From positions 10,956 to 74,955 of the forward strand of contig CAZHRT010000004.1 in the NCBI GenBank assembly GCA_964534665.1: a DNA stretch of 64,000 nt, in the 5' to 3' direction. The notes beneath the pieces were generated by a model that worked only from the letters and a program-made list of their open reading frames with translations, was not told the DNA's origin and ran no database searches. The position numbers and the translations under genes are program-made. This DNA is from an uncultured Methanosarcinales archaeon (lineage in GTDB: Archaea; Nanobdellota; Nanobdellia; Woesearchaeales; JAHJBD01). Numbering within the stretch: position 1 is the first letter of the stretch; every line of letters begins with the position of its first letter. Shown here piece after piece: positions 23,836 to 46,000 of the stretch.

Positions 23836-24128
23836 TATATAAACTTTGTGTCATCACCCCTTGGTTTCTACTGGAAAAGTTTTTTAAATGTTTTTGCTTC
23901 TTTCTTTCTTTCTTTCTTTTCTATATAGAAAATAATAATAATAATAATAATAATAAACATAAAAACACATAATATAATATATATAATATAATATATATTT
24001 TTAATAAAAAAACAAATATGAACAAAAAATAGATTATAAATCTCCATAGGAAACCAAGGGGTCACACAGAAAATGTTACTTCTTAGTTACTATAAAGTTT
24101 AATATGCTTATTAATTAAAAAGCCATAT
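23836..24128. other. oriC: Chromosomal replication origin (oriC): two inverted ORB elements flanking an AT-rich DUE that contains (TCTT)5, (AAT)8 and ATATAAT repeats. ORB-A is at 23847-23876 on the minus strand (TCCAGTAGAAACCAAGGGGTGATGACACA) and ORB-B at 24043-24069 on the plus strand (TCCATAGGAAACCAAGGGGTCACACAG)
   Basis: Both boxes share TCCAnnnGAAACCAAGGGGT, which matches the archaeal ORB core (dyad plus G-string). They are in inverted orientation ~165 bp apart, enclosing sequence that is almost pure A/T. The origin is immediately upstream of orc1/cdc6. Confidence 0.8.
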
Positions 24129-24931: not shown

Positions 24932-25477
24932 ATGAAAGCAATTGTTTTTCCAAAAGCAAATGAAGAAGAATTCATTAAAATTGCAGAAAAGTTAGGCTAT
25001 TCTAGTTTGATATTTGTATATGATTATAGTTATTATTCAAATTCTCCAGAAATAAAGTCAAAATTAAACATTGAAAAAGGAATTTTATGTTTACCTAAAG
25101 AAATTAAAAAAGCAAAAAACCTTTCAAAATACCTTTTTGTACAATCTTCTAGTAAAGATAGGGAGATTATTGAACAAAACAAGAACATATTTTTATTTGA
25201 TCTAGAAACACAAGGGAAAAAAGATTTTATTCATCACAGGGCATCTGGCCTAAATCAAGTTTTATGTAAATTAATCAAAGAACATAATATTTCAATAGGT
25301 TTTTCATTTTCAACCGTGCTTAAAGCAACATCAAAAGATAAACTTATTGGAAGAATCAAACAAAACATTAAATTTTGTAAAAAGTATAAAATTTATACTA
25401 TTTATTCAACTTTTGCTTTAAAACCATATGAAATGAGGCCTGCAAAAGATATTTTATCTTTTTTTGAGGTAATATGA
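24932..25477 (+). CDS. rnp3: RNase P protein component 3 (Rpp30/Rnp3, TIM-barrel)
   Basis: The C-terminal half aligns by eye with Pyrococcus Rpp30 ([21 protein letters not shown] vs [41 protein letters not shown] vs [23 protein letters not shown]). Confidence 0.6.
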   Translation: [181 protein letters not shown]

Positions 25478-26400
25478 AAATAGTTTGTCCGCTAGATAAT
25501 AAAGAAGAAGTTCTTGATTTAATTAATGCTGGCGCTGATGAATTTTATTGTGGGTTTGTATCAGACGAATGGATAAAAAAATTTTCAGTAATGGCTAGTG
25601 CAAACCGCCGTGAATGGGGGGATTGCAATTTTAGAAGTATTGAAGACCTTAAACAAACATTAAAAATTTGTAAAAAACATGATAAACCAGTATTTTACTG
25701 TTTAAATTCAGCAAATATATCAAAAAATCAATATGATTTACTTTTTAAAGAACATGAAAAGATTAAAATGCTGGGCTTTAGCGATTATATTATTTCTGAT
25801 GTTGCATTAATGTTAAAATTTTCAAAATTTCATGTTAGTTGTGGCGCAGCAGCATTAAATTCAAACGCAATTCAGTTTTTTAAGAAAAATGGGGCCACAA
25901 GAATCATTCTTCCAAGACAAATTACTTTAGAAGAATTTAAAACACTAAGACAAAAAAACAAAAATGTTGAATTGGAAGCATTTATTCTTAATGATGCCTG
26001 TAAAAATTTAGATGGGCTGTGTACCTTCATGCACGGTTTTTCAAAAAGCTATTGTAAAGAAACAGTTGCCTGTTGTATGGATTATGATGTTGAAATAAAA
26101 ACTAACGACAAAATAAAGTCGCGTACAGTAAAAAGAAAACTCAAATCAAAATTAGCTAGTAACAAAACAATATGTGGTGCATGCGCATTACATGACTTTT
26201 ATCATGGGGGGCTAGACGCAGTAAAAATTGTTGGGCGCGGAAAATCAAAAGAACAAAAAATAAAAGACATAAAATTCATAAAATCTTTATTGGTGCACAC
26301 GAATTTATCTAGGGGTGAATTTATAAAAATTGCAAAAAACATAAGACAAAAAACATACCAAACGCCCTGTACTCCGGAGCTATGTTACTATGAAATCTAA
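25474..26400 (+). CDS. Peptidase-U32-family protein (UbiU/RlhA/TrhP-like putative Fe-S hydroxylase), paralog A
   Basis: N-terminus KIVCPLDNKEEVLDLINAGADEFYCGF, mid-block LEAFILNDACKNLDGLCTFMHGF, and a Cys cluster (C..C...CC...CGAC) consistent with the U32 4Fe-4S site. ATGA overlap with rnp3. Confidence 0.65.
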   Translation: MKIVCPLDNKEEVLDLINAGADEFYCGFVSDEWIKKFSVMASANRREWGDCNFRSIEDLKQTLKICKKHDKPVFYCLNSANISKNQYDLLFKEHEKIKMLGFSDYIISDVALMLKFSKFHVSCGAAALNSNAIQFFKKNGATRIILPRQITLEEFKTLRQKNKNVELEAFILNDACKNLDGLCTFMHGFSKSYCKETVACCMDYDVEIKTNDKIKSRTVKRKLKSKLASNKTICGACALHDFYHGGLDAVKIVGRGKSKEQKIKDIKFIKSLLVHTNLSRGEFIKIAKNIRQKTYQTPCTPELCYYEI

Positions 26401-27124
26401 AGCAATATTAATTTCAAGTGTAGAAGGCCTTCATTTAGCTAAAGGTTATGATATACTTTATTTTGGCCACGAATTTTGTGAACACCTTATACCTTCTTTG
26501 GGAGATTTTAAAATCGCACATAATTATGCGAAAAATAACAACCTAGGCTTTACAATAGTCACCCCTTACGTAACGGATAAGGGAATTAAACAAATTTCAA
26601 AAATTGTTTCCAATTTCAAAAATTGTGAAATAGTTATTAATGATTGGGGTGTTTTAGATTTATTACAAAATCACGATTTAAAAATAAATCTTGGTAGATT
26701 ATTAACAAAGCGTAAAAAAGATCCCCGAATTAGTAACCAAGAATTTAATAGAGACATTCTTGATAATTTAACAAACTCTAATCTACAAATACAAGAATTT
26801 CAAAATTTCTTAAAACAACACAAAGTTTCTAGGATTGAAATTGATAACGCAGTTCAAGGCCAACCCACCACTTCATTCCCTCAATCATTATATTATCCGT
26901 ACGTTTATTTAACTACAACAAGAAAATGCCCTTTTATAGGGATAAATACCCTTTCAAATAAAGTAACTTTTCTTTCTGGGTGTACAAAAGAATGCAAGAA
27001 ATATAGTGCAAAAATTTCAAATGATAAATTAGGTAAGATCATTTTAAAAGACAACGCCCAATTTTTTATAAACAACAAATTACCAAAAGGCATAGATAGG
27101 TTAGTTTACATACCATGGACATAA
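26390..27124 (+). CDS. Peptidase-U32-family protein, short paralog B (UbiV-like)
   Basis: AILISSVEGLHLAKGYDILYFGHEFC N-terminus and IVINDWGVLDLL, plus a C-terminal Cys cluster (RKCPF...SGCTKEC). 11-nt overlap with paralog A. Confidence 0.55.
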   Translation: MKSKAILISSVEGLHLAKGYDILYFGHEFCEHLIPSLGDFKIAHNYAKNNNLGFTIVTPYVTDKGIKQISKIVSNFKNCEIVINDWGVLDLLQNHDLKINLGRLLTKRKKDPRISNQEFNRDILDNLTNSNLQIQEFQNFLKQHKVSRIEIDNAVQGQPTTSFPQSLYYPYVYLTTTRKCPFIGINTLSNKVTFLSGCTKECKKYSAKISNDKLGKIILKDNAQFFINNKLPKGIDRLVYIPWT

Positions 27125-28191
27125 TGTTATTCTTGTTATACATACCTGCAATAGTTTTGTTAGGTTTGATAACTTCTCATGAAGACATGAAAAAAGGAAT
27201 AATCCGTAATAAATTAGTTTTATTTGCAATAATTTATTCTTTTTTTGTTTTAATTATTATTAGACCAGATATAGAATATATCTCTTCTTTTTTTATGAAT
27301 TCTTTCTTTGCCACCATAGCAGCAATTTTATTTTGGCTTGTAAATCTGTGGAGCGCAGGAGATGCCAAGTTATTTATCGCATACGTTTTCTTAATACCCC
27401 TAAATAGTTATGTTTATGGTTACGATAATTTGTTCCCGGCAATGGCTGTATTGGTTAATACTTTTTTACCCTTGTTTGTTTTTTATTTTTTAAAAACATT
27501 TTCAAAAATCACTTGGCAACAATTAATTAAAACTTTAAAATTTTCTTTTGATAAGAAAAAGTTATCAAATTTATTTATTAGTTTTTTTGCAATCTCCTGG
27601 CCATTATACTTTTTATCTAGCATGAACAACATATTTTCAAATTTATTTTTAGCAGTTATTGTTATTTTTTTAATACTCTCTTTACTTGAATTTCTTCTTC
27701 CAGGAAAACAAATAAAATGGTTTATAGTTATATCCCTTATTAGATTATTAATTGATAGATCAATATTAAAACAAGAATTTTGGGTGATGTTCTCCATTTT
27801 CTTTATATCCTACCTTATTTTAAGATATTTTGTGCTTTTCTTATCCTTTAGTGCCTTTACTAAGGATATTAATATTGAAGAATTAAAACCCGGGATGATG
27901 TTAGCTCAAAAAGTTGTTAAAAAAGGAAAGGGGTTTGTATTACAAGACGCATTCATAACAAATTTGTTTGAAGGGCTCAAAAAACAAAAAAATTCAATTT
28001 TAGCACCAAAAGTACTCAATAAAGGGGACATAACATTTATTAAAAAGTCACATAGTGACAATAAAATTAAAAAACATCAAATCAAAGTTCAAGAGTTTGT
28101 ATCTTTTGCATTATTTCTTTTTATGGGGGTTATTTTGACTTTATTTTTCAGGGGAAATATTGTTGTGTTTATATTAGAAACCTTTTTATAA
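27115..28191 (+). CDS. Type IV prepilin/preflagellin peptidase-like aspartic protease (A24 family; FlaK/PibD-like) with extra C-terminal TM helices
   Basis: Two catalytic Asp contexts at the spacing seen in FlaK/PibD: D24 in ITSHEDMKKGIIRN and D~82 in SAGDAKL (GxGDxKL-type). At 358 aa it is ~100 aa longer than typical. Confidence 0.6.
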   Translation: MDIMLFLLYIPAIVLLGLITSHEDMKKGIIRNKLVLFAIIYSFFVLIIIRPDIEYISSFFMNSFFATIAAILFWLVNLWSAGDAKLFIAYVFLIPLNSYVYGYDNLFPAMAVLVNTFLPLFVFYFLKTFSKITWQQLIKTLKFSFDKKKLSNLFISFFAISWPLYFLSSMNNIFSNLFLAVIVIFLILSLLEFLLPGKQIKWFIVISLIRLLIDRSILKQEFWVMFSIFFISYLILRYFVLFLSFSAFTKDINIEELKPGMMLAQKVVKKGKGFVLQDAFITNLFEGLKKQKNSILAPKVLNKGDITFIKKSHSDNKIKKHQIKVQEFVSFALFLFMGVILTLFFRGNIVVFILETFL

Positions 28192-28212
28192 ATTTATAAC
28201 TAACTAATTAAC

Positions 28213-28554
28213 ATGGAATCTGTAAGCAACATTGAATTTTATCAGGATGGGAACTATGCACTAATTTCAGTTAATCCAAAAACGTATTCTCTTTCAACAG
28301 TATATTCTGCTGCCTACACGTTCATTGAAAAAGCATATGTTTTAATTGAGGGGGACCCATCAGAAGAGATTATTGTTGAGATACGGCCTAAAGATAAACA
28401 ACACAATGCAAAACAATTTGCATTTGAATTCAACAACGAATTGCTTCACTACGCACTTTATGAAACAAACACAAAAAGAAATACTGCCGCTCGCGACATT
28501 ATACTAAAGCGTGCTTTATCAACTAACGATGGAACAAACAATACAATTAAATAA
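28213..28554 (+). CDS. HxsD-like small protein (His-Xaa-Ser system accessory protein-like), 113 aa; alternatively a RiPP precursor
   Basis: C-terminal ELLHYALYE resembles the LLNDYxLRE signature of the HxsD family (from memory). Lies immediately upstream of a radical-SAM/SPASM gene. Confidence 0.4.
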   Translation: MESVSNIEFYQDGNYALISVNPKTYSLSTVYSAAYTFIEKAYVLIEGDPSEEIIVEIRPKDKQHNAKQFAFEFNNELLHYALYETNTKRNTAARDIILKRALSTNDGTNNTIK

Positions 28555-28738
28555 ATTCTTTTATCCTAAAGAATTAATCAATCAAGCAGTAAAGGACTAC
28601 GAATCAATTTGCGACATTAAAATAATTGATAATGATCAAAGGTTTATTGTTACACTAGAGCTTAAACAGCCAGGTAACTTAAAAGAAGTTACAGGAGAAT
28701 TTTGCAATTATATTCTGGCCCTTATCAAGAACGCATAA
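28529..28738 (+). CDS. Shorter tandem paralog of the upstream HxsD-like protein (69 aa from MEQ)
   Basis: Blocks shared with the upstream gene: ME...F(Y/F)..., IEGDPSEEIIVEIRPKD vs IDNDQRFIVTLELKQPG, FAFEFNNELLHYAL vs VTGEFCNYILALI. Overlaps its 3' end by 26 nt. Confidence 0.4.
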   Translation: MEQTIQLNKFFYPKELINQAVKDYESICDIKIIDNDQRFIVTLELKQPGNLKEVTGEFCNYILALIKNA

Positions 28739-28767
28739 TATTTTAAATAACAAAATCTTTCTATTTA

Positions 28768-30066
28768 ATGGTTAAATTGAAAAAAGAAAATTCCGACAAT
28801 TTTATTTTACCAAGGTTTAGAAAGTTAGGGGACCAATATCTTATTACCTCTGATGGTGGCCACTGGACTTTTTCAAAAACACCAAAAATTAATAATATTA
28901 ACAACAATGATCCTGCGTGTACACAATATCAACGTAAGTATAAACATTTATTTCAGGGCACAGCATTACACATCATTGTGTTAACATTAAGGTGTAATCT
29001 TAAATGTAGTTATTGTCATGCGAGCGTATTGCCTACAGAGAAACAAGGGAAAGATATTGATGAAGTTACATTAAAAAAAACAATTGATTTTATTTTTCAA
29101 AGTCCTGCAGATAAAATTACTATTGAGTTTCAAGGTGGGGAGCCGCTTTTACGTTTTGATTTAATTAAAAAAGCAATAGATTATGCTTTGTCAAAAAAAG
29201 GTAAAGAAGTTAGATTCGCACTAGTTACAAACCTTCTTCTTATGGATGATGAAAAATTAGATTACCTTATTAGCAAAAAAGTTGGAATATGTACATCTCT
29301 TGATGGTCCAAAGGAAGTGCACGATCAAAATCGTGGTTGCTATGATCTACTTACTAAAAAAATTGATTTGGTAAAAAATAAAACACAACTTAATGCATTA
29401 ATGGTAACCACCAAACATTCTTTAGGCAAACACAAAGAGATTATAGATGAATATGTACTGTTCGGTCTTGACAAAATCCAGATTAAGCCATTAAATCAAT
29501 TAGGTTTTGCTAAAGGCAGACAAGATTTAAGCATTACTTCTGAAGAGTTTATAGATTTTTGGCAGAAATCAATTAAGTATATCATGGAACTTAATAGCAA
29601 AGGCGTTAATATTAAAGAAACTATGACCGAAGTTATTTTAAATAAAATAAAAGGGTTTGTGTCAGATGAAATTTATCTTGATTTATTAAGCCCCTGTGGT
29701 GCAGCAATAGGCCAATTAGCATATAATTACAACGGCAATATTTATTCGTGTGATGAAGCAAGGATGCTAAATGACGACTTATTTTTGTTGGGCAACGTGA
29801 ACAAAAACAATTACAAAGAAATTTTAACTAGTGATAAATGCTGTGCATTAATTGCGAGCTCCATTAATGACACCCATTTTTGTGATTTATGTGCATATAA
29901 ACCCTATTGTGGATTATGTCCTGTTTGCAGTTATGCAGATACAAATAATGTTATACCTCATTTACCAGATTTTAGATGTACTGTACATAAAGCAATGTTT
30001 GACTTTATATTTAAGAATTTTAGTAGCTTGAATGATTCCCATGATTCCCATGGTGGGCATGATTAA
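28768..30066 (+). CDS. Radical SAM enzyme with C-terminal SPASM domain (HxsB/HxsC-like peptide maturase; anSME-like)
   Basis: CNLKCSYC (Cx3Cx2C), GGEPLL glycine-rich SAM motif, SPASM Cys cluster (C..GN.YSC...CDLCAYKPYCGLCPVC). The C-terminal tail is NDSHDSHGGHD. Confidence 0.75.
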   Translation: MVKLKKENSDNFILPRFRKLGDQYLITSDGGHWTFSKTPKINNINNNDPACTQYQRKYKHLFQGTALHIIVLTLRCNLKCSYCHASVLPTEKQGKDIDEVTLKKTIDFIFQSPADKITIEFQGGEPLLRFDLIKKAIDYALSKKGKEVRFALVTNLLLMDDEKLDYLISKKVGICTSLDGPKEVHDQNRGCYDLLTKKIDLVKNKTQLNALMVTTKHSLGKHKEIIDEYVLFGLDKIQIKPLNQLGFAKGRQDLSITSEEFIDFWQKSIKYIMELNSKGVNIKETMTEVILNKIKGFVSDEIYLDLLSPCGAAIGQLAYNYNGNIYSCDEARMLNDDLFLLGNVNKNNYKEILTSDKCCALIASSINDTHFCDLCAYKPYCGLCPVCSYADTNNVIPHLPDFRCTVHKAMFDFIFKNFSSLNDSHDSHGGHD

Positions 30067-30289
30067 CTTCAATTGTATGTGTGTTAGTATCAACATTTAG
30101 CAATAAAGGGCTATATTTCCCTTTTGGATGATTAAAAACTGCTTCTACAGATTTTGCAGCAATCCCAATTACTGCTGCAGTACCAACAATAGCACCAACA
30201 GTCATAATAGCATGCTTAGAAATTTTACCTTCTTCATCTTGTAAAAATGATTTAATCTTCTTTTTTATCTTTGGAAGTAACATAATCAT
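30020..30289 (-). CDS. Small membrane-anchored peptide with His-rich C-terminal tail (candidate HxsA-like precursor/substrate), 89 aa
   Basis: Basic N-terminus MIMLLPKIKKKIK, a possible class-III-like cleavage context (KHA|IMTVGAIVGTAAVIGIAA), and the C-terminus NHAHHGNHGNHSSY. Starts 12 nt after the stop of the upstream radical SAM on the same strand. A chance ORF of this length in ~25% GC DNA is improbable. Confidence 0.5.
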   Translation of the reverse strand: MIMLLPKIKKKIKSFLQDEEGKISKHAIMTVGAIVGTAAVIGIAAKSVEAVFNHPKGKYSPLLLNVDTNTHTIEVNHAHHGNHGNHSSY

Positions 30290-30301
30290 AGATATAAATA
30301 A

Positions 30302-31252
30302 TTAATATTTAAACTTTGTTATAAGTGGGTCATTGTTTATGCCTCCAAGACACTTTATTTTATGTTTACACACATTACATTCTTTTGGTAAAAAAGAATT
30401 TAAACTATCAAAAATCTTACCAATTTGGTTGATTGATACATTTCCCAAGATTTTTTGTGAATAATAATCTGTTTTGATATCTCCTTTTGTATCTACCACT
30501 ATACGTGACCTACCACCATCATTAATCCCACCTACACAAACACTATCTGCTTTATTTGATATACAGAACGGAACAGCATTTGCTATAAAAAAATCTTTAT
30601 TATATTGTTTATTTAATCTTGAGATCTCTTGGATAGCCAACCCCATTTCTTTTATACTTGTATTACCTATAGGTCTAAGAAAAAACCAGTCATTATATTC
30701 AATTTCTTGTGCAATTTTATAAAATTCTTCAAGGCATTCAATATTTTTCTTAATTAAAATTGTTGCAAGCATAACAACAACATTATGTGTTTTCAATTTA
30801 TTCAGTATCTCTTTAATCCTTTTTTTTGGATCATGAAAAGAAATTAATATATGGTCAATATATTTTAATGGTCCATTTCTAAGCAAAGTTCCGTTCGTGT
30901 TAACTATTACATATAATCCCTTTTCTTTTGCATAACTCACAATTTTAGTCAAATCTTTACGTAAAAATGGTTCTCCCCCAGTTAATCTAATAGCATTAAC
31001 TCCAGACAAACAAACATTATCTATTATTTTCTTAATTTGACTTAAACTAGGATCACCATTATTTTTATTAAAACAAAATGAACAATTTAAATTACATTTA
31101 TCGGTTATTTCTATTCTAACCTCTTTCAAATTAGATTTATTTTTTCTTTGTTTGATTAAGTGTTTCAGTCTAGATGCAAGTTTCATAAAAATTAGTATAT
31201 CCTCACAATTAATAAGTTTTTGGATAAGTTTTTTATATTCTACAGTGTACAC
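30302..31252 (-). CDS. Radical SAM enzyme with C-terminal SPASM/twitch domain (second HXS-type maturase)
   Basis: CNLNCSFC (Cx3Cx2C), GGEPFL, C-terminal C...C and CNVCKHKIKC (Cx2Cx5C). The start may be the internal Met at 31186, which would leave room for divergent promoters. Confidence 0.7.
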   Translation of the reverse strand: MYTVEYKKLIQKLINCEDILIFMKLASRLKHLIKQRKNKSNLKEVRIEITDKCNLNCSFCFNKNNGDPSLSQIKKIIDNVCLSGVNAIRLTGGEPFLRKDLTKIVSYAKEKGLYVIVNTNGTLLRNGPLKYIDHILISFHDPKKRIKEILNKLKTHNVVVMLATILIKKNIECLEEFYKIAQEIEYNDWFFLRPIGNTSIKEMGLAIQEISRLNKQYNKDFFIANAVPFCISNKADSVCVGGINDGGRSRIVVDTKGDIKTDYYSQKILGNVSINQIGKIFDSLNSFLPKECNVCKHKIKCLGGINNDPLITKFKY

Positions 31253-31258
31253 TAAGTT

Positions 31259-31927
31259 ATGAGATGGGTAATGTTATTTTTAGTGATAGTTGCTTTTTTG
31301 TTATATGAACCAATATCTTTTGAATTATATCTTAACAATGAGTTCTCAGGTAATGCTAAAAAATTTTCAAATAAAGTTATGGAAGGAAAAGTAACATATT
31401 ATGTTAATAATTATTTTACAGAACAAGATTTAGCACCACTATGGAATTTATTATTTTCTAAACACTATTTTTATCCTACAAATTACTTGTCTTTTAATCA
31501 AAGAAGAATACTGGTAAATAAGGTATTTTCATTAAAGCCATCAACTTTGGAACAAGCTTCTGACCAAGTGAATATTCTTAAATATGGTTTGGGTTTAAAC
31601 AACGCTTCATCGACCATACCTTTTAGCCAAACAGGCAACATAATGCTCAAAAAAAATGTTTGTTCAAGTAAATTTAAGATTAATGTAACAGATTCATGTG
31701 AAGTTAGCAATTATATGGACTTATTCTTCTTTTGTGAAAACTCTCTTAGCAGTACAGAAACCGAAATGGTAGAGGGGGCAACAGAAGGAAATTGTGTAAC
31801 ACATTGTAAAGAACATTGTTATAATCCAGCACAAGTTTATGTTAACCAAGACTGTAAAAGCATGTTTGAAAAAAAGTTAATTGACCCAAATGTTAATTTC
31901 CACTGTATATTTTTAAAATGGACCTAG
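31259..31927 (+). CDS. Hypothetical secreted/membrane-anchored Cys-containing protein (222 aa)
   Basis: N-terminal hydrophobic segment MLFLVIVAFLL and ~10 Cys in the C-terminal half. Embedded between two radical SAM genes. Confidence 0.35.
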   Translation: MRWVMLFLVIVAFLLYEPISFELYLNNEFSGNAKKFSNKVMEGKVTYYVNNYFTEQDLAPLWNLLFSKHYFYPTNYLSFNQRRILVNKVFSLKPSTLEQASDQVNILKYGLGLNNASSTIPFSQTGNIMLKKNVCSSKFKINVTDSCEVSNYMDLFFFCENSLSSTETEMVEGATEGNCVTHCKEHCYNPAQVYVNQDCKSMFEKKLIDPNVNFHCIFLKWT

Positions 31928-33177
31928 ATTTACTAAATTTGTCAAAACACGGCATAAGAAAGAAAAAGTATGATCACGAATTTATTTATAGGTATCCTTC
32001 TTCTAGCAATATGCCCAAATTTAATCATGATGGATTTTCTATTACTACAAAAAAAGCTGCATTATACCTCCACTTACCTTTTTGTTCTAGTCCATGTAAA
32101 TTTTGCCATTATTATAAAATACCTAAACCTAATCCAAAACAAATAACAAAATATTTAGAATATGTAAAAAAAGAAATAAAGTTCTATAATGGTATTAAAG
32201 CAACATCTCTTTTTTTGGGTGGCGGAACACCAACATTTCTTGAGTCAGAACAATTAATTGACATATACTCTTACCTAAATGATGCATTCTCTATTGGAGA
32301 CATTGAAAAAACCATAGAATCCAGCCCAGAAACATTAAACAATAAGAAAATTAATACTTTAGCTGATTTGGGATTTAATAGACTAAGTATTGGTGTTCAA
32401 TCATTCAATGATTCGATAAATAAAAATGTTGGCCGAGCACATAATACTAATCAATCAATTCAAGCTATTAATCAAGCAAAAGATGCAGGGTTTAAAGTTA
32501 ATGTTGACTTAATTTATGGTCTACCCTCACAAGACACCAATTCATGGAAAGAATCTTTAGAAAAAGCATACAGATTAAATGTTGATTCTATAACAGCATC
32601 AGAACTTAGGGTGTTACCAGGATCATATTATTACTACACTAACGAAAAGTTCGCATCCGAAAAAAAAATGTTGGGGATGCACGAAACATTTATTGATTTT
32701 TTTCATGATAAAGGTTACAATTTAATATTCCCTTACCAATATTCAAAACAGAAATTTGATTTTTTAGAAACTCAATGGGGCAATAAACAGTTTTTGGGTT
32801 TAGGCGCATCTTCCTGTTCTTATATTGACAAGTGGGATTATAATAATGCTTTTCCTTTGGGCCTTTATTACAAATATATTGACAAATATGGTTATGCCGC
32901 AATTAAAGGGAAAAAACTGAACTTACAAGAACAAATGTTAAGAGAAATCTTACTTGGATTAAAGATCATTAATAAAGGAATATCTAAAAAAGAGTTAAGT
33001 GATAAATATGGTCTTAATAATTTTAAAGTTTTTGATCAATTAGCAGACCTTAAACTAATAGATAACAATCAAAACATAACTCTCACAACAAAAGGAACCC
33101 TATTTTCAGATGAAGTGGCAAATTTTATACTCCGAAAGTTTCAAGCATCCCATCTTCTCCAGAACCAAACTCCATAA
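31918..33177 (+). CDS. HemN/HemW-like radical SAM protein (oxygen-independent coproporphyrinogen-III oxidase family)
   Basis: CSSPCKFC (Cx3Cx2C), GGGTPT and IGVQSFNDSINKNVGRAHN motifs typical of the HemN/HemW family, plus the HemN C-terminal domain. Confidence 0.75.
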   Translation: MDLDLLNLSKHGIRKKKYDHEFIYRYPSSSNMPKFNHDGFSITTKKAALYLHLPFCSSPCKFCHYYKIPKPNPKQITKYLEYVKKEIKFYNGIKATSLFLGGGTPTFLESEQLIDIYSYLNDAFSIGDIEKTIESSPETLNNKKINTLADLGFNRLSIGVQSFNDSINKNVGRAHNTNQSIQAINQAKDAGFKVNVDLIYGLPSQDTNSWKESLEKAYRLNVDSITASELRVLPGSYYYYTNEKFASEKKMLGMHETFIDFFHDKGYNLIFPYQYSKQKFDFLETQWGNKQFLGLGASSCSYIDKWDYNNAFPLGLYYKYIDKYGYAAIKGKKLNLQEQMLREILLGLKIINKGISKKELSDKYGLNNFKVFDQLADLKLIDNNQNITLTTKGTLFSDEVANFILRKFQASHLLQNQTP

Positions 33178-34978
33178 CTTCATTTAGTTGTAAATCAAAC
33201 ACTTTTACTCTCGACCTTTTCATATCAGTAATATATATCTTATTTCCTTCAATTGCAACTTCAAGTATTGTAAGTTCGTCTTGATCTTCACCAAAATCAC
33301 CAAAGGATTCAAACAATTTAGTATCAAAATCATATATCACGCCTTTTCTGTTTGTATTATCTGCAAATACTAATCTATTATCTTGGGTTAAGGCTAAACT
33401 TTCATCAAGTTCACCTATGCTGTCAGGTATGTTTATTTTTTCTATCAAATTAAATTCTTTGTCAAATACATTAATTGTTCTACCAAAATCATTTGTGACA
33501 ATTAGCTTTTCATTATTGGCTAATACTCCTAAAGGTAATTTAATATCATCAATAGTTTTTATTAACTTCAATTCTTCATAAACTTTAATTGTTTTTGTAT
33601 CGTCTTCTACAGCATATAATTTACCATTACCAAAAGAAAGGGCCATTGGAGAATATATATCTTTGATTGTATTTTTGTGGTTTAGTTCATTATCAAAAAT
33701 TTGTATTCTATTGTTATTCTTATCTGCAACATAAATATTACCTTCTATATCACTGGCTATCCCAGAAGGATTATTAAAATGCTCATTACTAAACCCTTTT
33801 CCAAGACCAATTTTTCCAAGGTAAACTCCTGTTTTATCAAAAAAGATTACTTTATTGTTTAATGGATCTGAAACAAAAACCTCATCAGAAACAGTTATAA
33901 AAAAAGGCGCAAATAAAGCACCCATTATTTGTGTTTGCAAACTAGCTAATTCTTTAACATAATTTAATTCTTTATCAAGTACAACAACTCTTTGGTTTCC
34001 ACTATCTGCAACATAAATTTGCCCTTTATCATAAACTAACCTGCTAGGTAAATAGAATTGGTTTATTCCGTTACCAAGGCCACCATTTTTTTTGATTAAT
34101 TTGCCTTTTTTATCTAGTTTGATGATTTGATGGTTCTTATGGTCAGCGATATAGATATTATTCCCAGCTATAGCAATTCCACTTGGTCTTGAATCTGGGA
34201 CATCTATGTTTTTAATAAATTCTAAATTTTTATCTAAAACTTTTATCCTTTGATTATTTCTCTCAATTACATAAATTTCTTTATCAACAACAATATCTGT
34301 TGGATTATCAACATTTACACTAGTTACTTTTCCATCAATTAATTTTGCAACAGTCCCAGTTCTATCATCTGTAAAGTAAAACCCTGTTCCAACATCAAAA
34401 CCTAAAATACCTGCATCAACACTTGGCGTATCCAATAAAGTAGGTATCAAATTAATTAATTCTTTAGGTAAACTAATTGTTTCAATGAAATCTAGTTCGT
34501 TTGAATAAACTTTAATTTTTTGATTAAATCTATCTAAGATATAGATTTTCCCATTTTTATAAACTACATTTGATGGGAACCTAAATAAGTCATCATCTGT
34601 TCCACCATTAATAAATTTAATATTTCCTTCTGCATCATTAGTTGTTCTTTCTCCAATTGTATCTACATGCAAAAGAGATTTTTTGTTATAAGCCATAATT
34701 CTATGTCTCATTTCATCAACAACCAAAACAAAATCTTTTGCAATTGCTACATCTGTAACAGAAATTGGGTCAACTTGGAAAGGAATAATCTCTTGGCCAC
34801 AGATAGCTTCACAACTTCCACCACAATCAACTCCTAGTTCACCACGATTAAGAATGCCATCATAACAATGCATTGTATACTTAGGTTTAGGTATAATCCA
34901 TAACGCGATTATTATAATTATTGCAATTAGAATTATTATACTAACTATTTTTCCTTTATGTTTTTTTGAAACCAACAA
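33125..34978 (-). CDS. NHL-repeat beta-propeller protein, N-terminal TM anchor, extracellular
   Basis: Signal-anchor IVSIIILIAIIIIIALWII and at least six NHL repeats (GKIYILDRFNQKIKVY, NIYIADHKNHQIIKLD, QIYVADSGNQRVVVLD, NIYVADKNNNRIQIFD ...). Confidence 0.7.
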   Translation of the reverse strand: MLVSKKHKGKIVSIIILIAIIIIIALWIIPKPKYTMHCYDGILNRGELGVDCGGSCEAICGQEIIPFQVDPISVTDVAIAKDFVLVVDEMRHRIMAYNKKSLLHVDTIGERTTNDAEGNIKFINGGTDDDLFRFPSNVVYKNGKIYILDRFNQKIKVYSNELDFIETISLPKELINLIPTLLDTPSVDAGILGFDVGTGFYFTDDRTGTVAKLIDGKVTSVNVDNPTDIVVDKEIYVIERNNQRIKVLDKNLEFIKNIDVPDSRPSGIAIAGNNIYIADHKNHQIIKLDKKGKLIKKNGGLGNGINQFYLPSRLVYDKGQIYVADSGNQRVVVLDKELNYVKELASLQTQIMGALFAPFFITVSDEVFVSDPLNNKVIFFDKTGVYLGKIGLGKGFSNEHFNNPSGIASDIEGNIYVADKNNNRIQIFDNELNHKNTIKDIYSPMALSFGNGKLYAVEDDTKTIKVYEELKLIKTIDDIKLPLGVLANNEKLIVTNDFGRTINVFDKEFNLIEKINIPDSIGELDESLALTQDNRLVFADNTNRKGVIYDFDTKLFESFGDFGEDQDELTILEVAIEGNKIYITDMKRSRVKVFDLQLNEVMEFGSGEDGMLETFGV

Positions 34979-35071: not shown

Positions 35072-38000
35072 GTGGATGATTTAAATATGTTTAAGAGTAA
35101 AATACTACTCATTTTAATATTGGCTCTTGCCGCATATAGTGTATCTGCTGCAGAATGTAGCGAATGTGGCGCACACACCACAGCATGTGATTGCCCTTCT
35201 TTTTGTGAAAATTCTGGAGATACTAGCGGTACTTGTGGAGATATTATACGTTGTCAACCAGTTGCAGGAAGAACAATATCTGAATGTAGTTCTTTTACAG
35301 ATGGTGCAGTATGTACATCATCACCTGGCTGTTCATTTTGTTCAGGGAGCGGTACTTGTTCATCTTTAACTAGTGCAGGCAAAAATACTTGTAAAAAACA
35401 GCCAGATTGTAGTTGGGACGAAACAGATGTTGACCCAGTCAACCATTTTTGTACTGGTAGTGCAAAATCTTGCTTTGATATAGGTTTGGATCCAAGTTGT
35501 ATAGCTGGCGATTTTTGTGAATCAGATTGTAATTCAGCAGCATTATGTAGTTGGGACACATGTGACGGTGCAGTTGAATCTTGTCAAAGTAGAACATCTG
35601 AAATCGAATGTCAAATTACGGGTAGCAATTGTTTTTGGATTGGCGATAATATTGATCAGGACCAAGATATTTACACCAAAAACGATATTTGTCGAACAGG
35701 AGAAACGCTTCAAATGGATTTTTGGTTATTAGATGTTGCCGATAGGGATGGCATTTGTCCACCAACAGATTGTATTGATGAACCAGGTGATTGTGCAGGT
35801 GCAGGTTACACTGGCGAGGCACTTACATGGTGTCAAAATAATCCTTATTTGATACATCCTGGCGTTTTTGATTTTCCAAACGATGGCATTGACCAGGACT
35901 GTAATGGTGCAGATTCAACAAAAGCAATAGATTGCGATTCATCCCTTTCAGCATGTGTTTATATTCACAAATTTGATAATGATGTTTTATCAGAACACCC
36001 AGTAGATTTTTATCCTTGTTATTTACAAGATCCAACTTGTAAAAAATGTGATCGTGATTATGGTTTAACAGACCCTTGTGTCAGAACATGTTCTGGGACA
36101 GATTGTTGGAAACTAGGAAAATATAAAACTATTATAAAAAGACATTCCAAAGAAGAATTCGAGTATTCTTTTGATTTTGATAATTTAGGTGAAACTAAAT
36201 GTAATAATGCAGACTGGTATGGCTCAGATGGTGTTTGGCGTGATGCTGGTTGGTTAGGTGCTGGCGGAGATTTAAATTGTTGTGGAGATGATAGGCCCTG
36301 GGTTTATGAAGGAATAGCCTTTAGACTTTATGAAACTGCAGCAGCATCCAGAGAATCTGTTTTTAGAGTTTTTAATGACGATCTACAAGATTCTTTTTTC
36401 TTAGGCCAAAGCTCACAAGCAAATTTGGTTAATTTGGAAGCTAAGGGGTATTCATGGGAAACTTTTTTGTATGCTCCACCTTCAACAGGAACTACTGGAG
36501 ATGAAGTGTGGGCACTATATAATCCATTAAACGGCGATAGGATCTTTACTACAGATACTAATGAAAAAAATACCCTTGTAGGTGCTGGCATAGCTGCTGA
36601 CTGGCACCCAACTCAAACATTTAGGGCACTTGGTCCAACAGAATCTCCCTCTACAACTATTGCAGTACACCGTTTTTATAATCCTGATAAAGGTATTCAT
36701 TACTTTACAAAAGACGAAAGTGAAATTGTTACATTAACAGATGGTCCAGAAATTTTTACTTGCGGCTCTGACATATTTACAGCATGTGTTGATTCAAATA
36801 TTGTCAAAGATGCAGATGAAGACGAAAATGTTTGTATAGGCTGTGGCCATTATCCATTAGATGGAAATTTAGGGGGTTTAGCTTGGAATGAGGAATTAGA
36901 TTCAAATAATTGTTGCGGTAACGAAGAAACTGATTGCGGCATATCTGATGGGCCAAACCTTTGCTATATGGATGATACCTCTTCAAGATGGATTGCAGGT
37001 ACACAAGGCGAAGAAAATAGTGTGGGTACCGTAATTAATATGCCTTGTGATGATTCTGATTATACATTATTACCTAACCTAGAATGGGTTCCATGCAAAG
37101 AAAATAGTTTTATGGCCCCTTTTTCACCAACAAAATTAAGGTTCCTGATTGGAGACGTTCTACACGAATATCTTTGTAAAGATAGTGAAATTCTTGCTTG
37201 TTGTGGTCCAGATAACACAAATGAAGATTGTCTTGTTCCATTAAGCAATGCTCGAACTACAACAGATGGCCCTGTAACAATTGGCACAGATACTTTTTAT
37301 TGTACTTCTTCATTTACATGGACAACTCAACCAGATGTAGATGAAGCCTCTTGTATTGCTTCAACAAATCCTGTTACTAGCACAAATAATGTTTGGACAG
37401 GCACAAAATGTTGTGGTGATGATGGTCTTGATGATGATTACTCAGACCATTTAGGGATTGGTGCTTGTTTAAATGGTGCAGTAATACCTAATGGTGATAA
37501 AGCAGCTAATGATCTGATTGTTGAAAATGGATTATTATATGGTTGTGTTGTAGATACTTCAGATTTTCCAGATATGTCAGAAGATATCATAACTCCTTCT
37601 GATCGTTGTGAGATAATTTCCAATAATTTCTGTTCATATTCTGGGGATTGGAGCACAGAAATTTCAACCAGGGATAATCCTACTTATCGTAATAGGACAG
37701 CAACTAAGCATGAATCAATTTCTGGTGGCACAACGAGTGCTTGTTGTGAAGTTAGCGAATGTTGGGATAGTAGAACTTGCGTTTCACATGGCACAATTAT
37801 CAACCAAAATTATGCCTGTATTAATGGTGATTGGGAAGACAGAGAACTTCGTTGGAAATGGGACTTCAGTGAAAACGGTTATTGTTTAAGTAATGATCAG
37901 TGCCTTGTAGAAGATCTTGCAAGTGCAACCGACAAATGCATTGATTCAGGAGAATACATATTTGACCATTATTGTGAAGAAGGGAACTGGACATCTAGAA

Positions 38001-42936: not shown

Positions 42937-43080
42937 ATGAAAGAACGTATCACAATTACCTTAGATAAAGAACTTCTAGACTGGTTAGATAAAAAAATCG
43001 ACGATAAAGTATTTGCAAATCGTTCTCATGGCTTTGAGTTCTTATTAAAAAGGAAAATGGAGGACGAAAATGAAAGTTAA
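42937..43080 (+). CDS. Ribbon-helix-helix (CopG/Arc/MetJ-type) DNA-binding protein, 47 aa; below the ORF-track cutoff
   Basis: MKERITITLDKELLDWLDKKIDDKVFANRSHGFEFLLKRK is a beta-strand/helix/helix pattern typical of RHH. Purine-rich stretch AAAAAGGGG 6 nt upstream. The 3' end overlaps the ATG of the 2567-aa gene by 11 nt. Confidence 0.6.
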   Translation: MKERITITLDKELLDWLDKKIDDKVFANRSHGFEFLLKRKMEDENES

Positions 43081-46000
43081 ATTGTTCATATTCCTTGGTT
43101 TATTATTAGTACTATCTAGTTTCGTAGTTGCACAAGTACCCACCTTAGGTTATTGTCTAAATCCTGCAATTAATGGACAAAATCCTGAAGGCAGATACTT
43201 AAATTTAGAAGAACACTTTTGTAAAATTGATGCAGTTACAGTTGAAGAATGTTGTTCACCCACATTTATCTTATATGGGCAACCCGGTTTTCCTACTGAT
43301 GTAACTGATTGTGAGGATAATTATTTTGATACAGTTTTAGCTGATTTACCAGATGATATTGAAGCTAATTGTGATCTTGGCTGTTGTTTTGAACCAGGAA
43401 ATCAAGACCCACCTTTTTGCACTGAAAGAAAACAAGGTATATGTCAAGCTTTAGATCCAGGTAATGAATTTATGACTGGTTTTGGACCAGCAGAAGTCGG
43501 TATCGGTGACGCGTGCTATAAAAAAGATCCAACAACAAACATTGTAACTGCCTTTGATAATAAATGTAGTTATGCAGGTGCTGAATCATGTTCAGATTAT
43601 ACTAATGATGGTAAAACAGTATGTAGACAATCAAGATGTAATTGGTGTGATGTAACAAATAGTTGCGGTTCAACTTGTTCAGACTGTCTTGACAAACCAC
43701 TTAGTGACGATTTTCTTTGCACTGAATCACAAATCACATGTAGGGAATCAGAACTAAATAATCAACCAGCATGTACAGCTGCAGATTGTAAATGGTCTGT
43801 AAATAATTGCGATAAATCTTGTCGTCCAGGCTATACTGATCCAGATAATAACGGGGAATGTGACTTGTCTATTGATTGTAGAACTTTTGATGATGACGAA
43901 CAAACTTGTTTAGATGCAACCACTATTTCAGGTACTAACGCAGGTTGTTTATGGACCATAACTGGAACAGACTCAGGAAGCTGCAGTTTTGAATGTTTAT
44001 CAACCCAATATGTAGACGATGGGAATAGGGTATGTGAAGAATCAAACCTTTGTACTGATGGGGGATTTGTTTGTGCTGATGCTTGCCTTACTGTATCTGG
44101 ACATCAAGCGACTTTAGACTCTCAATGTACAACTACAGGATATGAATGTTGCGAAGAAGCTTCACCTCTCCCGCAAGGCTGTTGTGAATTTAGTTGGCAA
44201 TGTAGCGCAGATATTAATGGAGGCACAAGAATATTAAAAGATTTTAATAGTTGTCATTACGATTCAACAGACGAAGACACAGTATGGCCATGCACCCAAG
44301 AATGTTTCCAAGAATCATGTGCAAATGATTTTCCAATAAATAGCCCAAACAATGAACGTGCATTATCTGCTGGACAAACACATTGTTGGTGCGGTACTCA
44401 AGCAGTACCATTATCATCTACAGATTATTGTTGTGATGGATCAACACAATCTGAACAATGTGGCGAACGAGGTTCTGTTCGAGGAACAGTAATCAATGCA
44501 ACAGGCGATTTAGAAGAAAATGTTAATATTCTTATATTAAATACAAATAATCAAAAAGTTGGCGAAACAATAACTGATGCATCTGGAAATTTCTTTGTTG
44601 AAGGCCTACCTTATAGTTCTAATGTTGAATACATTATTTTAGCAACAAAAGGTCAATACCAAGATCTTAGACACCCGGTAATATTTACAGTAATAGATAT
44701 GACTAACATTGAACTTACCCTTATTTTAAAAGATGTTGGTGATTGTTATTCACAAAACCCACCAGCACCAAACAATTTTGATAGTTCCCCTATAAAGGGT
44801 GAGAAAAAAGTTAAACTCACATGGGATTATAATTATAATCCAGAATTTGCTGATTGTGCTGGACTGATTAATGCAATCTTTTTATACAAACAAGTTGGTG
44901 ACGGATTTGAATATATTATTCTTCCTCCTGAAACAACAGAATATATTGATGATGGGCGACACTTTGGTGAACTAAATTGGGGCAGTCTTAATGAGGAAGG
45001 CGAACCAGAATATTTTCATCAAACTTATGATTATCAGATTAAAGCACATTACATCACAGGGGTTATGAGTTCAGAAGAAACATCTCATTTTGAAATGGGT
45101 GATGAAATCTGTGAAAACATTTATGCAGATGAAGAGTTTTGTTGTTATGGTAGTGACCAATATTGTATACCAGATGGTCAAGAAACACGAATGAGGCGTA
45201 ATTGTGATGAAAACAATAAAATCTCAGCAGATGTTAATGCATTAACCCATATACAGAACATTGATGGGACAGATGTAACTTCTTCTTGTCCTCCAACCTA
45301 TCAATGTAATGGCCCAAATACTCTTGGTGAAACAAATTGTTTTAAAGATGTTAACTGTGAAGCTTTAGGCAACCCATTTGGTGTGTATTATGATCAATTA
45401 TCTTGTTATGGTATAGCTAACATATTTGAAAAACCATTTAACTATTGTTATTACGATGAAAGCTTAACAACAATAGATTCATGTCAATCTTGTACTTCAA
45501 CAACTTCTTGTTTTGATTATAAATCTGAATCAGCATGTGTTGCAGATTCGTGTGATGCAAGCGGATCTTATTTAGGCCCAGGAAATTGCCAATGGCAATC
45601 AACTTTTGATTCATTAGGCGAAGGATTTTGTTATGATGAAGATTATCAAGGAACAGATTATTGTAGTTTATGTACTGATACAGGCACAATTTTCAATAAT
45701 AATGATTGCAGCCAAAATGTTTGTTCAAAGTTAGGTAGTTGTCATGCAACTGAATTTAATTCTTGTAGTGCATGTCCAGAACAACCAGACTGTGAAATCT
45801 TTGAAACATCAACAGCATGTGAAAATGCAAATGGTCTGGATCAATCATTTGAAACAGATAATGGAGATTATTCAACATGTTATATTGATGTTGATCAAAC
45901 CAAACCAATACCTACTAATCTCATAGCGAGCGACGATGCATGCAATGTTGGCAAGTGTCAGTGGGATACGAATAACGGAGAATGTATAAAAGATTCTGAT

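Follow-up and report, generated by a model that had tools for sequence, protein, structure and literature searches.

What substrate do two adjacent U32-type proteins act on when their genes stand beside peptide-maturation genes in an archaeon, and do the two work as one enzyme? The question is raised by a stretch of 64,000 nucleotides (nt) on contig CAZHRT010000004.1 of an uncultured archaeon (assembly GCA_964534665.1), called the window here, an archaeal sequence with a low guanine-plus-cytosine content of about 25 to 35%. Open reading frame (ORF) 1 (25474 to 26400, 308 amino acids [aa]) encodes a long U32 subunit and ORF2 (26390 to 27124, 244 aa) a short one, both on the plus strand and both where an earlier note on this DNA had placed them. 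Their sequences place them in a large, so far unannotated clade, made up of such pairs from anaerobic archaea and bacteria and distinct from the UbiUV and the TrhP/RlhA enzymes. We put the chances at about even that the pair is an O2-independent heterodimeric U32 oxidase or hydroxylase tailoring a peptide or the product of a radical S-adenosylmethionine (rSAM) enzyme, the substrate and the chemistry being proposed from context and family analogy. What sets it apart is a short-subunit family that is unannotated, a long subunit with an extra conserved Cys4/His set, and a genomic niche that is new.

All U32 oxidases characterized so far contribute to ring hydroxylation that is independent of O2, and they use iron-sulfur (Fe-S) clusters (PMC6747719, PMC10990095, PMC6599085). 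Three activities have been assigned, on ubiquinone, tRNA U34, and rRNA C2501, and most subfamilies are uncharacterized; prephenate is the oxygen donor where this has been tested, and an electron acceptor has been postulated (PMC10990095).

The long and the short subunit

ORF1 passes the threshold of the Pfam family PF01136 (94.7 bits, E value of 6.6e-27, gathering score of 22.4), and the Pfam scan yields no other domain and no Peptidase_U32_C. It stays below every NCBIfam equivalog cutoff, reaching 69.2 bits against 440 for UbiU (NF047963), 52.5 against 534 for TrhP (NF011996), and 16 against 275 for UbiV. A hidden Markov model (HMM) built from 117 relatives scores 134.7 bits on Escherichia coli TrhP, 116.8 on UbiU, 108.6 on RlhA, and 4.0 on UbiV, and hhalign matches the family to E. 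coli UbiU with 99.7% probability (E value of 4e-26). By these scores, ORF1 stands for a clade of its own among the canonical long U32 proteins, about equidistant from TrhP, UbiU, and RlhA and orthologous to none of them. The AlphaFold2 model, a U32 TIM barrel (predicted local distance difference test [pLDDT] of 85.7), has its best PDB match in 5d88 (E value of 9e-8), the only solved U32 structure.

The motif C176-X6-C183-X16-C200 is invariant in the relatives of ORF1 and falls on C169, C176, and C193 of UbiU in the hhalign alignment. The family has no CX3C or CX4C after the third Cys, and the fourth ligand is ambiguous (C234 or others) and is not aligned to UbiU C232. A further CxxC...CX4C set is present, so that C176, C183, C200, C234, C237, C299, and C304, together with H187, are found in 117 of 117 relatives. 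C234, C237, C299, C304, and H187 could be enough for a second metal site in ORF1, and thus for a possible third site per heterodimer. UbiU, TrhP, and RlhA have no Cys at the positions of this extra set.

Source annotations read "U32 family peptidase" or "collagenase-like PrtC family protease", and together with the historical family name and a peptide precursor encoded nearby, they raise the idea that the pair are true peptidases that cut the HxsA-like precursor described below. We regard this as highly improbable: the sets of invariant Cys correspond to Fe-S ligands in the oxidase branch, the characterized members with these motifs are all hydroxylation factors, and a peptidase of the A24 type, complete with its two catalytic Asp residues, is already encoded in the neighboring operon.

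ORF2 is labeled "hypothetical protein" by the sequence sources and yields neither a Pfam match, PF01136 included, nor an NCBIfam match. Only 5 of 46 members of its family graze PF01136 (best E value of 0.0034), and the NCBIfam model for UbiV (NF047965, cutoff of 275) matches neither ORF2 nor any of the 46 members at an E value of up to 1. The comparison of profiles is more informative. With hhalign, the ORF2 family matches the ORF1 family at 82% probability (E value of 1e-5) over 75 columns and, with larger alignments, at 88% (E value of 3e-6) over 186 columns, which supports homology at the level of the superfamily, not membership of PF01136 by a curated model. C30, C180, C198, and C202, arranged as C30...C180-X17-C198-X3-C202, are present in 98 to 100% of 232 relatives, and a near-global profile alignment places them on the UbiV ligands C39, C180, C193, and C197. 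UbiV is also the best, though weak, match of ORF2 among the four E. coli U32 proteins. The AlphaFold2 model of ORF2 (pLDDT of 93.9) is TIM barrel-like; its beta/alpha strands come in the order seen in ORF1, and after them stand a Cys loop and a beta-hairpin domain. Sequence searches of the PDB chains with ORF1, ORF2, and the ORF2 profile returned nothing useful.

Since its profile matches the ORF1 family and its four Cys align with the UbiV ligands, ORF2 is, at the level of remote homology, a cryptic UbiV-type member of the U32 superfamily. The earlier note had described two U32 paralogues, each with a Cys cluster. The clusters are borne out in both families; the U32 assignment holds for ORF1 through PF01136, whereas for ORF2 the standard HMMs fail, as the note had allowed might happen, and the support comes from remote homology and from the conserved Cys.

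The pairing of the two subunits extends far beyond the window. At an E value of up to 1e-3, clustering of the ORF2 family at 50% identity leaves 2,255 representatives (825 at up to 1e-30), and relatives occur in 290 species-level genomes, including Omnitrophota, Thermodesulfobacteriota, Chloroflexota, Planctomycetota, Bathyarchaeia, Hadarchaeota, and DPANN groups. We examined 90 ORF2-family genes from non-redundant loci. A U32-long gene is directly adjacent on the same strand in 73 cases, upstream in 61 and downstream in 12, and lies within 3 kb in another 5; none was found for 3 genes at a contig edge, and 9 genes have none nearby. Two of two distant ORF1 homologues, from Acidobacteria and Aenigmarchaeota, adjoin an unannotated protein that scores 247 to 261 bits on the ORF2 HMM. 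This near-obligate linkage across both domains of life supports a two-subunit enzyme, presumably a heterodimer. A two-subunit architecture in the style of UbiU/UbiV thus appears to be widespread in strictly anaerobic archaea and bacteria, preferentially in rSAM biosynthetic clusters, with a short subunit that is invisible to Pfam and NCBIfam.

Some lineages vary the arrangement (related loci carry L numbers). Omnitrophota loci L017 (three pairs), L025, L040, L062, L073, and L076 have two to three tandem pairs in clusters with up to eight rSAM genes. A Thermodesulfobacteriota subclade (L031, L033, L037, L045, L046, L064, L066, and L090) has the reversed order, short before long, and no rSAM neighbors, and some of these loci have a peroxiredoxin-like Redoxin gene upstream. 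In a related subclade (L036, L055, L063, and L084), the short subunit has no detectable long subunit within 10 kb.

Neighboring genes and genomic contexts

Directly upstream of the pair lies a gene for a 181-aa Rpp30-like protein (24932 to 25477, plus strand), annotated in the source as "RNase P/RNase MRP subunit p30". Its matches to PF01876 (30.6 bits, gathering score of 35, E value of 2.8e-7) and to the NCBIfam RNase P component 3 (58.6 bits, cutoff of 200, E value of 7.6e-16) indicate a real, though sub-threshold, Rpp30 homologue. As read from the sequence, its stop codon and the ORF1 start share an ATGA (25474 to 25477), and ORF1 and ORF2 overlap by 11 nt (26390 to 26400); ORF2 and the downstream membrane-protein gene overlap by 10 nt (27115 to 27124). 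The earlier note had the ATGA in the right place but put the 11-nt overlap, which is real, between the pair and the downstream gene. Overlapping same-strand junctions make up about 10 of 23 in the window (hand count from the ORF list). An overlap is therefore the normal style of this genome and by itself weak evidence of function.

The ATGA junction with an RNase P-type gene invites the reading that the pair is a housekeeping RNA hydroxylase of the tRNA 5-hydroxyuridine (ho5U) or rRNA 5-hydroxycytidine (ho5C) type, comparable to TrhP1/TrhP2, for which all neighbors except Rpp30 would be irrelevant. By the HMM scores given above, ORF1 is at least as near to TrhP as to UbiU, and an archaeon of this kind would not be expected to have a quinone pathway. 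The tandem U32 pair that Bacillus subtilis needs for ho5U shares an operon with yrrM, a gene of 5-methoxyuridine biogenesis (PMC6599085), which is echoed by methyltransferase fusions in the ORF2 family. We had also weighed whether pairing by itself would rule out a role on RNA and gave the point up, since B. subtilis YrrN/YrrO are also a tandem pair (PMC6599085). An RNA hydroxylase nevertheless appears unlikely to us. ORF1 falls far short of the TrhP cutoff and has no detected Peptidase_U32_C domain, overlaps are routine in the window, and the family sits in clusters of rSAM, glycosyltransferase, and methyltransferase genes, sometimes in two to three tandem copies, unlike a housekeeping RNA enzyme.

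The distribution of Rpp30 points the same way. In the closest relative, L001, no Rpp30 gene stands beside the pair, and Cdc6 precedes it instead; Rpp30 is found near the pair in just one other lineage, L010/L077 (the L010 homologue has 36% identity, E value of 4e-27). In L140 and L133, the Rpp30-like gene lies directly upstream of the A24-like gene, with no U32 pair in the locus. Because the two genes abut in pair-less loci, the pair looks inserted into their junction, and the Rpp30-like gene is probably the original neighbor of the A24-like gene. The functional tie between the pair and Rpp30 that the earlier note had drawn is thus not upheld: the coupling to rnp3 does not point to an RNA substrate, and the link is incidental. 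The Rpp30-like gene itself, which encodes a TIM-barrel protein, recurs immediately beside the A24-like gene or Hxs operon, with no fewer than four archaeal loci showing this independently (window 24932 to 25477, L140 8516 to 9148, L133 1556 to 2245, and L010 12391 to 13053 on the minus strand), reflecting either an old conserved synteny or a role in the Hxs-like system instead of, or besides, RNase P.

Downstream of the pair begins an archaeal Hxs-like operon. Its first gene encodes a 358-aa A24-like polytopic membrane aspartyl peptidase (27115 to 28191, plus strand), which has a weak Arc_PepC match (21 bits, cutoff of 23.4) and no PF01478 match; the L010 homologue matches PF01478 weakly. D24 (TSxxDxxxGxIxN) and D83 (AGDAKL) are invariant among seven homologues; the protein thus carries both Asp motifs of the A24 type named in the earlier note, at sub-threshold Pfam scores. 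On the same strand follow HxsD (28213 to 28554; TIGR03976, 53.7 bits, cutoff of 50), a small HxsD-like protein (28511 to 28738; NF038315 HxsD_rel, 65.8 bits, cutoff of 41), and the rSAM/SPASM maturase HxsB (28768 to 30066; TIGR03978, 391.8 bits, cutoff of 370) with Radical_SAM and SPASM domains. The HxsD and HxsD-like genes overlap by 44 nt (28511 to 28554).

The minus strand encodes an 89-aa HxsA-like precursor (30020 to 30289), whose 3' end converges with that of HxsB in a 47-nt overlap (30020 to 30066). It consists of a leader, a transmembrane (TM) segment, and a His-rich C-terminal repeat ending in ...HGNHGNHSSY, and it scores 30.9 bits on HxsA3 (NF038309), below the cutoff of 65. The precursor family shares the conserved leader and TM segment and has a C-terminus such as HSHLSHSSHSSY, in which the alignment of five homologues shows an invariant H-x-H-H-x-x-H-x-x-H-S...Y. 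A second rSAM enzyme (30302 to 31252, minus strand; Radical_SAM, 61.6 bits) takes the HxsC position, which is also that of the rSAM gene after HxsA in L029, L082, and L130. In NCBIfam, it matches generic rSAM cores best, and the 25 matches listed do not include the HxsC equivalog. A protein of 222 aa (31259 to 31927, plus strand), with a signal or anchor at its N-terminus and rich in Cys at its C-terminus, has no Pfam match and no homologue in any related locus compared.

With a metagenome query built from four A24-like sequences, the order A24-like, HxsD, HxsD', HxsB, HxsA, in part followed by an rSAM gene, is strongly conserved and found in about 20 of 35 A24-like-anchored loci of at least 9 kb. 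Loci L097, L099, L103, L107, L124, and others have the same layout as window positions 27115 to 31252. A PADLOC search gave no match for the U32 subunits, the A24-like protein, either HxsD protein, or the NHL protein described below; HxsB, the second rSAM enzyme, and the HemN-like rSAM enzyme have only generic viperin-like rSAM matches. Two extra matches are a weak one of the HemN-like enzyme to the candidate system PDC-M51A and a marginal one of the Rpp30-like protein to Cas11e (E value of 0.004).

Behind the operon stand two genes that share the distribution of the pair. The first encodes a 419-aa HemN-like rSAM enzyme (31918 to 33177, plus strand; Radical_SAM at 101 bits and a weak HemN_C match), and the second encodes a 617-aa membrane-anchored NHL-repeat beta-propeller protein (33125 to 34978, minus strand; NHL at 120 bits, N-terminal hydrophobic anchor). 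Close homologues of the HemN-like enzyme (286 to 459 bits) occur in pair-bearing loci only (L096/L001, L082, L130, and L029), as do homologues of the NHL protein (192 to 582 bits; L023, L096, L082, L130, and L029). In L029 and L082, pair, HemN-like gene, and NHL gene are contiguous right after the Hxs operon; L130 has the same arrangement up to the end of the locus, where U32-long is the final gene that was detected. The operon is flanked by these genes in the window and L001, and in L023 the NHL gene follows ORF2. Because the HemN-like and NHL homologues occur only beside the pair, the four genes point to an accessory module.

The remaining surroundings are listed for completeness. Just upstream of the pair, genes for the PolD large and small subunits and Cdc6/Orc1 were identified through synteny with L001, where they are named by Pfam, and the AT-rich cdc6-proximal intergenic region (23836 to 24128) holds low-complexity repeats only. 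Just downstream of the cluster are two giant ORFs of 1,971 and 2,567 aa (35072 to 40987 and 43070 to 50773).

Across phyla, the pair is found in rSAM-rich surroundings. rSAM-like genes make up 21% of the neighbors within 5 kb of the pair, compared with 7% at 5 to 10 kb, and 33 of 58 well-flanked pair loci have at least one within 5 kb. In 19 loci of the rSAM type, Radical_SAM accounts for 54 of 124 neighbors, 18 of these with B12-binding domains, and the loci also hold glycosyltransferases, SAM methyltransferases, and DegT aminotransferases. A trio resembling GlcD, GlcF, and GlcE (FAD_binding_4, CCG plus Fer4_8, FAD_binding_4) lies directly upstream of the pair in Bathyarchaeia, Hadarchaeota, and Actinomycetota, as confirmed with Pfam, and apparently in Chloroflexota, judged there by gene sizes alone; in Helarchaeota, GlcDEF-like genes are convergent to the pair. 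The loci concerned are L054 (2724 to 7009), L088 (2987 to 7367), and L052 (247 to 4748), as well as L050 and L006. The trio is a candidate for the electron acceptor of the U32 oxidases.

The ORF2-family domain also occurs in fusion proteins. In five of seven, it is fused to class I SAM methyltransferases, and the other two are giant proteins with glycosyltransferase (GT) domains, one of which adds a B12-rSAM and a methyltransferase domain. The giant architectures are B12-rSAM, GT1, ORF2 domain, and methyltransferase in one and GT2, GT1, and ORF2 domain in the other. The fusion records are P0281, P0282, P0319, P0346, P0361, P0299, and P0364, along with L080 (9281 to 10747) and L030 (3132 to 6842). 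In an acidobacterial (Blastocatellia) locus, L176 (2454 to 8514), a short-long pair has an rSAM/Fer4_12 gene on one side and an ABC exporter with an S8 peptidase on the other. This arrangement resembles that of peptides made by the ribosome and modified after translation (RiPPs) and adjoins a nonribosomal peptide synthetase/polyketide synthase gene. We found no paper that links U32 proteins to rSAM clusters or describes this pair family.

So many redox genes, with the trio beside the pair in other phyla and up to three Cys4-type sites per predicted heterodimer, could also mean that the pair is an Fe-S electron-transfer or reductase module serving the neighboring rSAM or GlcDEF-like enzymes and not a hydroxylase. 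The clusters of known U32 oxidases are thought to act in electron transfer (PMC10990095). We find this improbable in view of the pocket-type residues that are invariant in both proteins, E23, R46, N78, D109, N129, R148, E154, K251, and R255 in ORF1 and E28, N84, D85, R103, S166, and R237 in ORF2. Invariant polar and charged residues in both barrels are typical of a substrate-binding enzyme. The methyltransferase fusions, too, suggest that a chemical group is installed, and we know of no U32 protein that serves simply to carry electrons.

Proposed activity of the pair

The O2-independent oxidase that we favor would have ORF1 and ORF2 as the subunits of a UbiU-UbiV-like Fe-S heterodimer, with the ORF2 cluster probably held by one N-terminal Cys and the C-terminal CX17CX3C. 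By analogy to the family, it would oxidize or hydroxylate an aromatic ring. The clade appears to be typically recruited into rSAM-rich maturation clusters, and here the pair, the HemN-like rSAM enzyme, and the NHL protein may have been added as an accessory module to an archaeal His-Xaa-Ser operon. The substrate might be the HxsA-like peptide, with the Tyr phenol or a His imidazole of its His-rich ...HSSY end, or another product of the neighboring rSAM enzymes, for which the HemN-like enzyme is the alternative source we would name. The methyltransferase fusions would fit a hydroxylation followed by O-methylation, and the GlcDEF-like flavin adenine dinucleotide (FAD)/Fe-S trio would fit an electron sink for a U32 oxidase.

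The earlier note had left the substrate between RNA and peptide. The neighborhoods and the co-variation of the accessory genes now tilt this clearly to the rSAM and peptide-maturation side and weaken the RNA side, so that the pair more likely tailors a peptide or an rSAM product than RNA or a quinone. This makes it a concrete candidate for an enzyme that hydroxylates anaerobically while peptides or natural products are matured. To our knowledge, U32 oxidases are the only enzymes that hydroxylate with an organic oxygen donor, prephenate.

Several points weigh against this reading. We know of no U32 enzyme that acts on a peptide, and DPANN archaea are usually without the shikimate pathway, so they may lack prephenate. 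The E value of the ORF2-UbiV alignment is weak (2e-3); it is uninformative, since the ORF1 family, certainly U32 and used as a positive control, scores the same on a UbiV profile that is thin (effective number of sequences, Neff, of about 1.5, with homologues only from Enterobacterales at more than 85% identity). Foldseek matched the ORF2 model only to generic TIM barrels in the PDB and so left the U32 fold unconfirmed. No rSAM-like gene is found within 5 kb in 25 of the 58 well-flanked pair loci. In the reverse test, only 2 to 3 of the 35 A24-like-anchored loci of at least 9 kb contain the pair, and the adjacency of pair and Hxs operon could be an island effect. The pair as a core Hxs component was rejected on this count: as most A24-like Hxs loci are without it, it is an accessory.

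An island effect would also suit a pair that hydroxylates an unrelated small molecule (a lipid, a cofactor, or a quinone-like compound) and has no more in common with the Hxs operon than a variable genomic island. The pair is missing from most Hxs operons, its contexts differ greatly across phyla, and the GT and methyltransferase fusions, along with DegT aminotransferase and GDSL lipase neighbors, suggest small-molecule or glycolipid chemistry in bacteria. We consider this explanation unlikely. The pair lies within 10 kb of Hxs genes (A24-like, HxsD, HxsB, or HxsA) in about seven independent DPANN lineages and one bacterial metagenome-assembled genome (window, L001, L010/L077, L029, L030, L080, L082, and L026), with order and orientation shuffled. 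About 7 of 12 DPANN pair loci thus have Hxs genes within this distance despite the rearranged order, far above chance for an operon of about 6 kb in a genome of about 1 Mb. The strict co-variation with the HemN-like enzyme and the NHL protein, which flank the same operon, speaks against it as well. For a quinone-like substrate, the UbiU and UbiV cutoffs are missed, and no UbiT/SCP2, prenyltransferase, or ubi gene was seen among the scanned neighbors in the window or, on inspection of context, in 81 related loci.

The favored reading can be taken a step further, to the first U32 oxidase acting on a ribosomal peptide or protein. The pair would be an O2-independent hydroxylase of an aromatic side chain (Tyr or His) of the HxsA-like precursor, working with the HemN-like rSAM enzyme in an undescribed archaeal, possibly antiviral, HXS-type envelope system. 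We put this forward as speculation that is, taken as a whole, rather unlikely. If true, the UbiV-like family of 2,255 clusters would mark a general anaerobic hydroxylation toolkit for rSAM natural-product and RiPP pathways.

Comparison with known systems

The closest architectural parallel is UbiU-UbiV (E. coli YhbU/YhbV), the heterodimer for O2-independent ubiquinone hydroxylation, which is likewise encoded by adjacent long and short U32-type genes. Its cluster ligands and the U32 Cys motifs were defined by Pelosi et al., and the UbiV layout is unusual in that the first Cys is far upstream, outside the U32 motif, and is combined with CX12CX3C (PMC6747719). ORF1 resembles UbiU in its CX6CX16C with three aligned Cys, and ORF2 resembles UbiV in the far-upstream first Cys and the C-terminal CXnCX3C, with a spacing of X17 instead of X12. 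Unlike UbiU-UbiV, the pair has a short subunit too diverged for PF01136, a long subunit with the additional CxxC...CX4C and His187, and neither a UbiT/SCP2 partner nor ubi genes nearby, and it is set in rSAM clusters of an archaeon and anaerobic lineages, not in Proteobacteria. The architecture described in the earlier note, a long and a short Cys-bearing subunit as in UbiU/UbiV, therefore stands as an analogy and a remote homology, while orthology does not (69 against 440 for UbiU and no UbiV match for ORF2). Hydroxylation of the C-terminal Tyr of the HxsA-like peptide would parallel the phenol-to-catechol step of UbiU/UbiV.

B. subtilis TrhP1/TrhP2 (YrrO/YrrN) are tandem U32 paralogues that are both required for tRNA ho5U; both have the standard U32 motif, and their operon includes yrrM, the third gene of the 5-methoxyuridine (mo5U) operon (PMC6599085). 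The tandem arrangement is shared, yrrM recalls the methyltransferase fusions of the short subunit, and the ORF1-family HMM has its highest score on TrhP. The differences are the missed TrhP cutoff, the absence of a Peptidase_U32_C-type motif, a context of rSAM and Hxs genes instead of translation genes, and an ORF2 without the standard U32 motif of YrrN/YrrO. RlhA, the 23S rRNA ho5C2501 synthase, shares the U32 barrel with ORF1 and has the motif CX6CX15C, but it is one protein of 653 aa with two U32-type regions, whereas the 308 aa of ORF1 form one domain, and its short partner is a separate protein.

For the operon, the comparison is with the HXS antiphage system of E. coli, in which the maturation of HxsA by HxsB, HxsC, and HxsD includes a change of +8 Da in the last HxS repeat; HXS systems are found to 99.7% in Pseudomonadota and consist of four genes in the order D-B-C-A (PMC13128918). 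The window operon shares HxsB and HxsD, both above cutoff, an HxsD-like protein, a second rSAM enzyme, and a precursor with His-x-Ser-type repeats. It differs in that the A24-like membrane peptidase comes first and in the precursor, which is TM anchored and 70 to 100 aa long in the archaeal operons. This layout, with the A24-like gene first, is not described in the 2026 HXS antiphage paper (PMC13128918). The antiphage role is that of the E. coli system. We flag the archaeal operon as a form of this newly described system that has an A24-type peptidase, with tailoring genes as an option: in a minority of lineages, it gains the U32 pair, the HemN-like rSAM enzyme, and the NHL protein.

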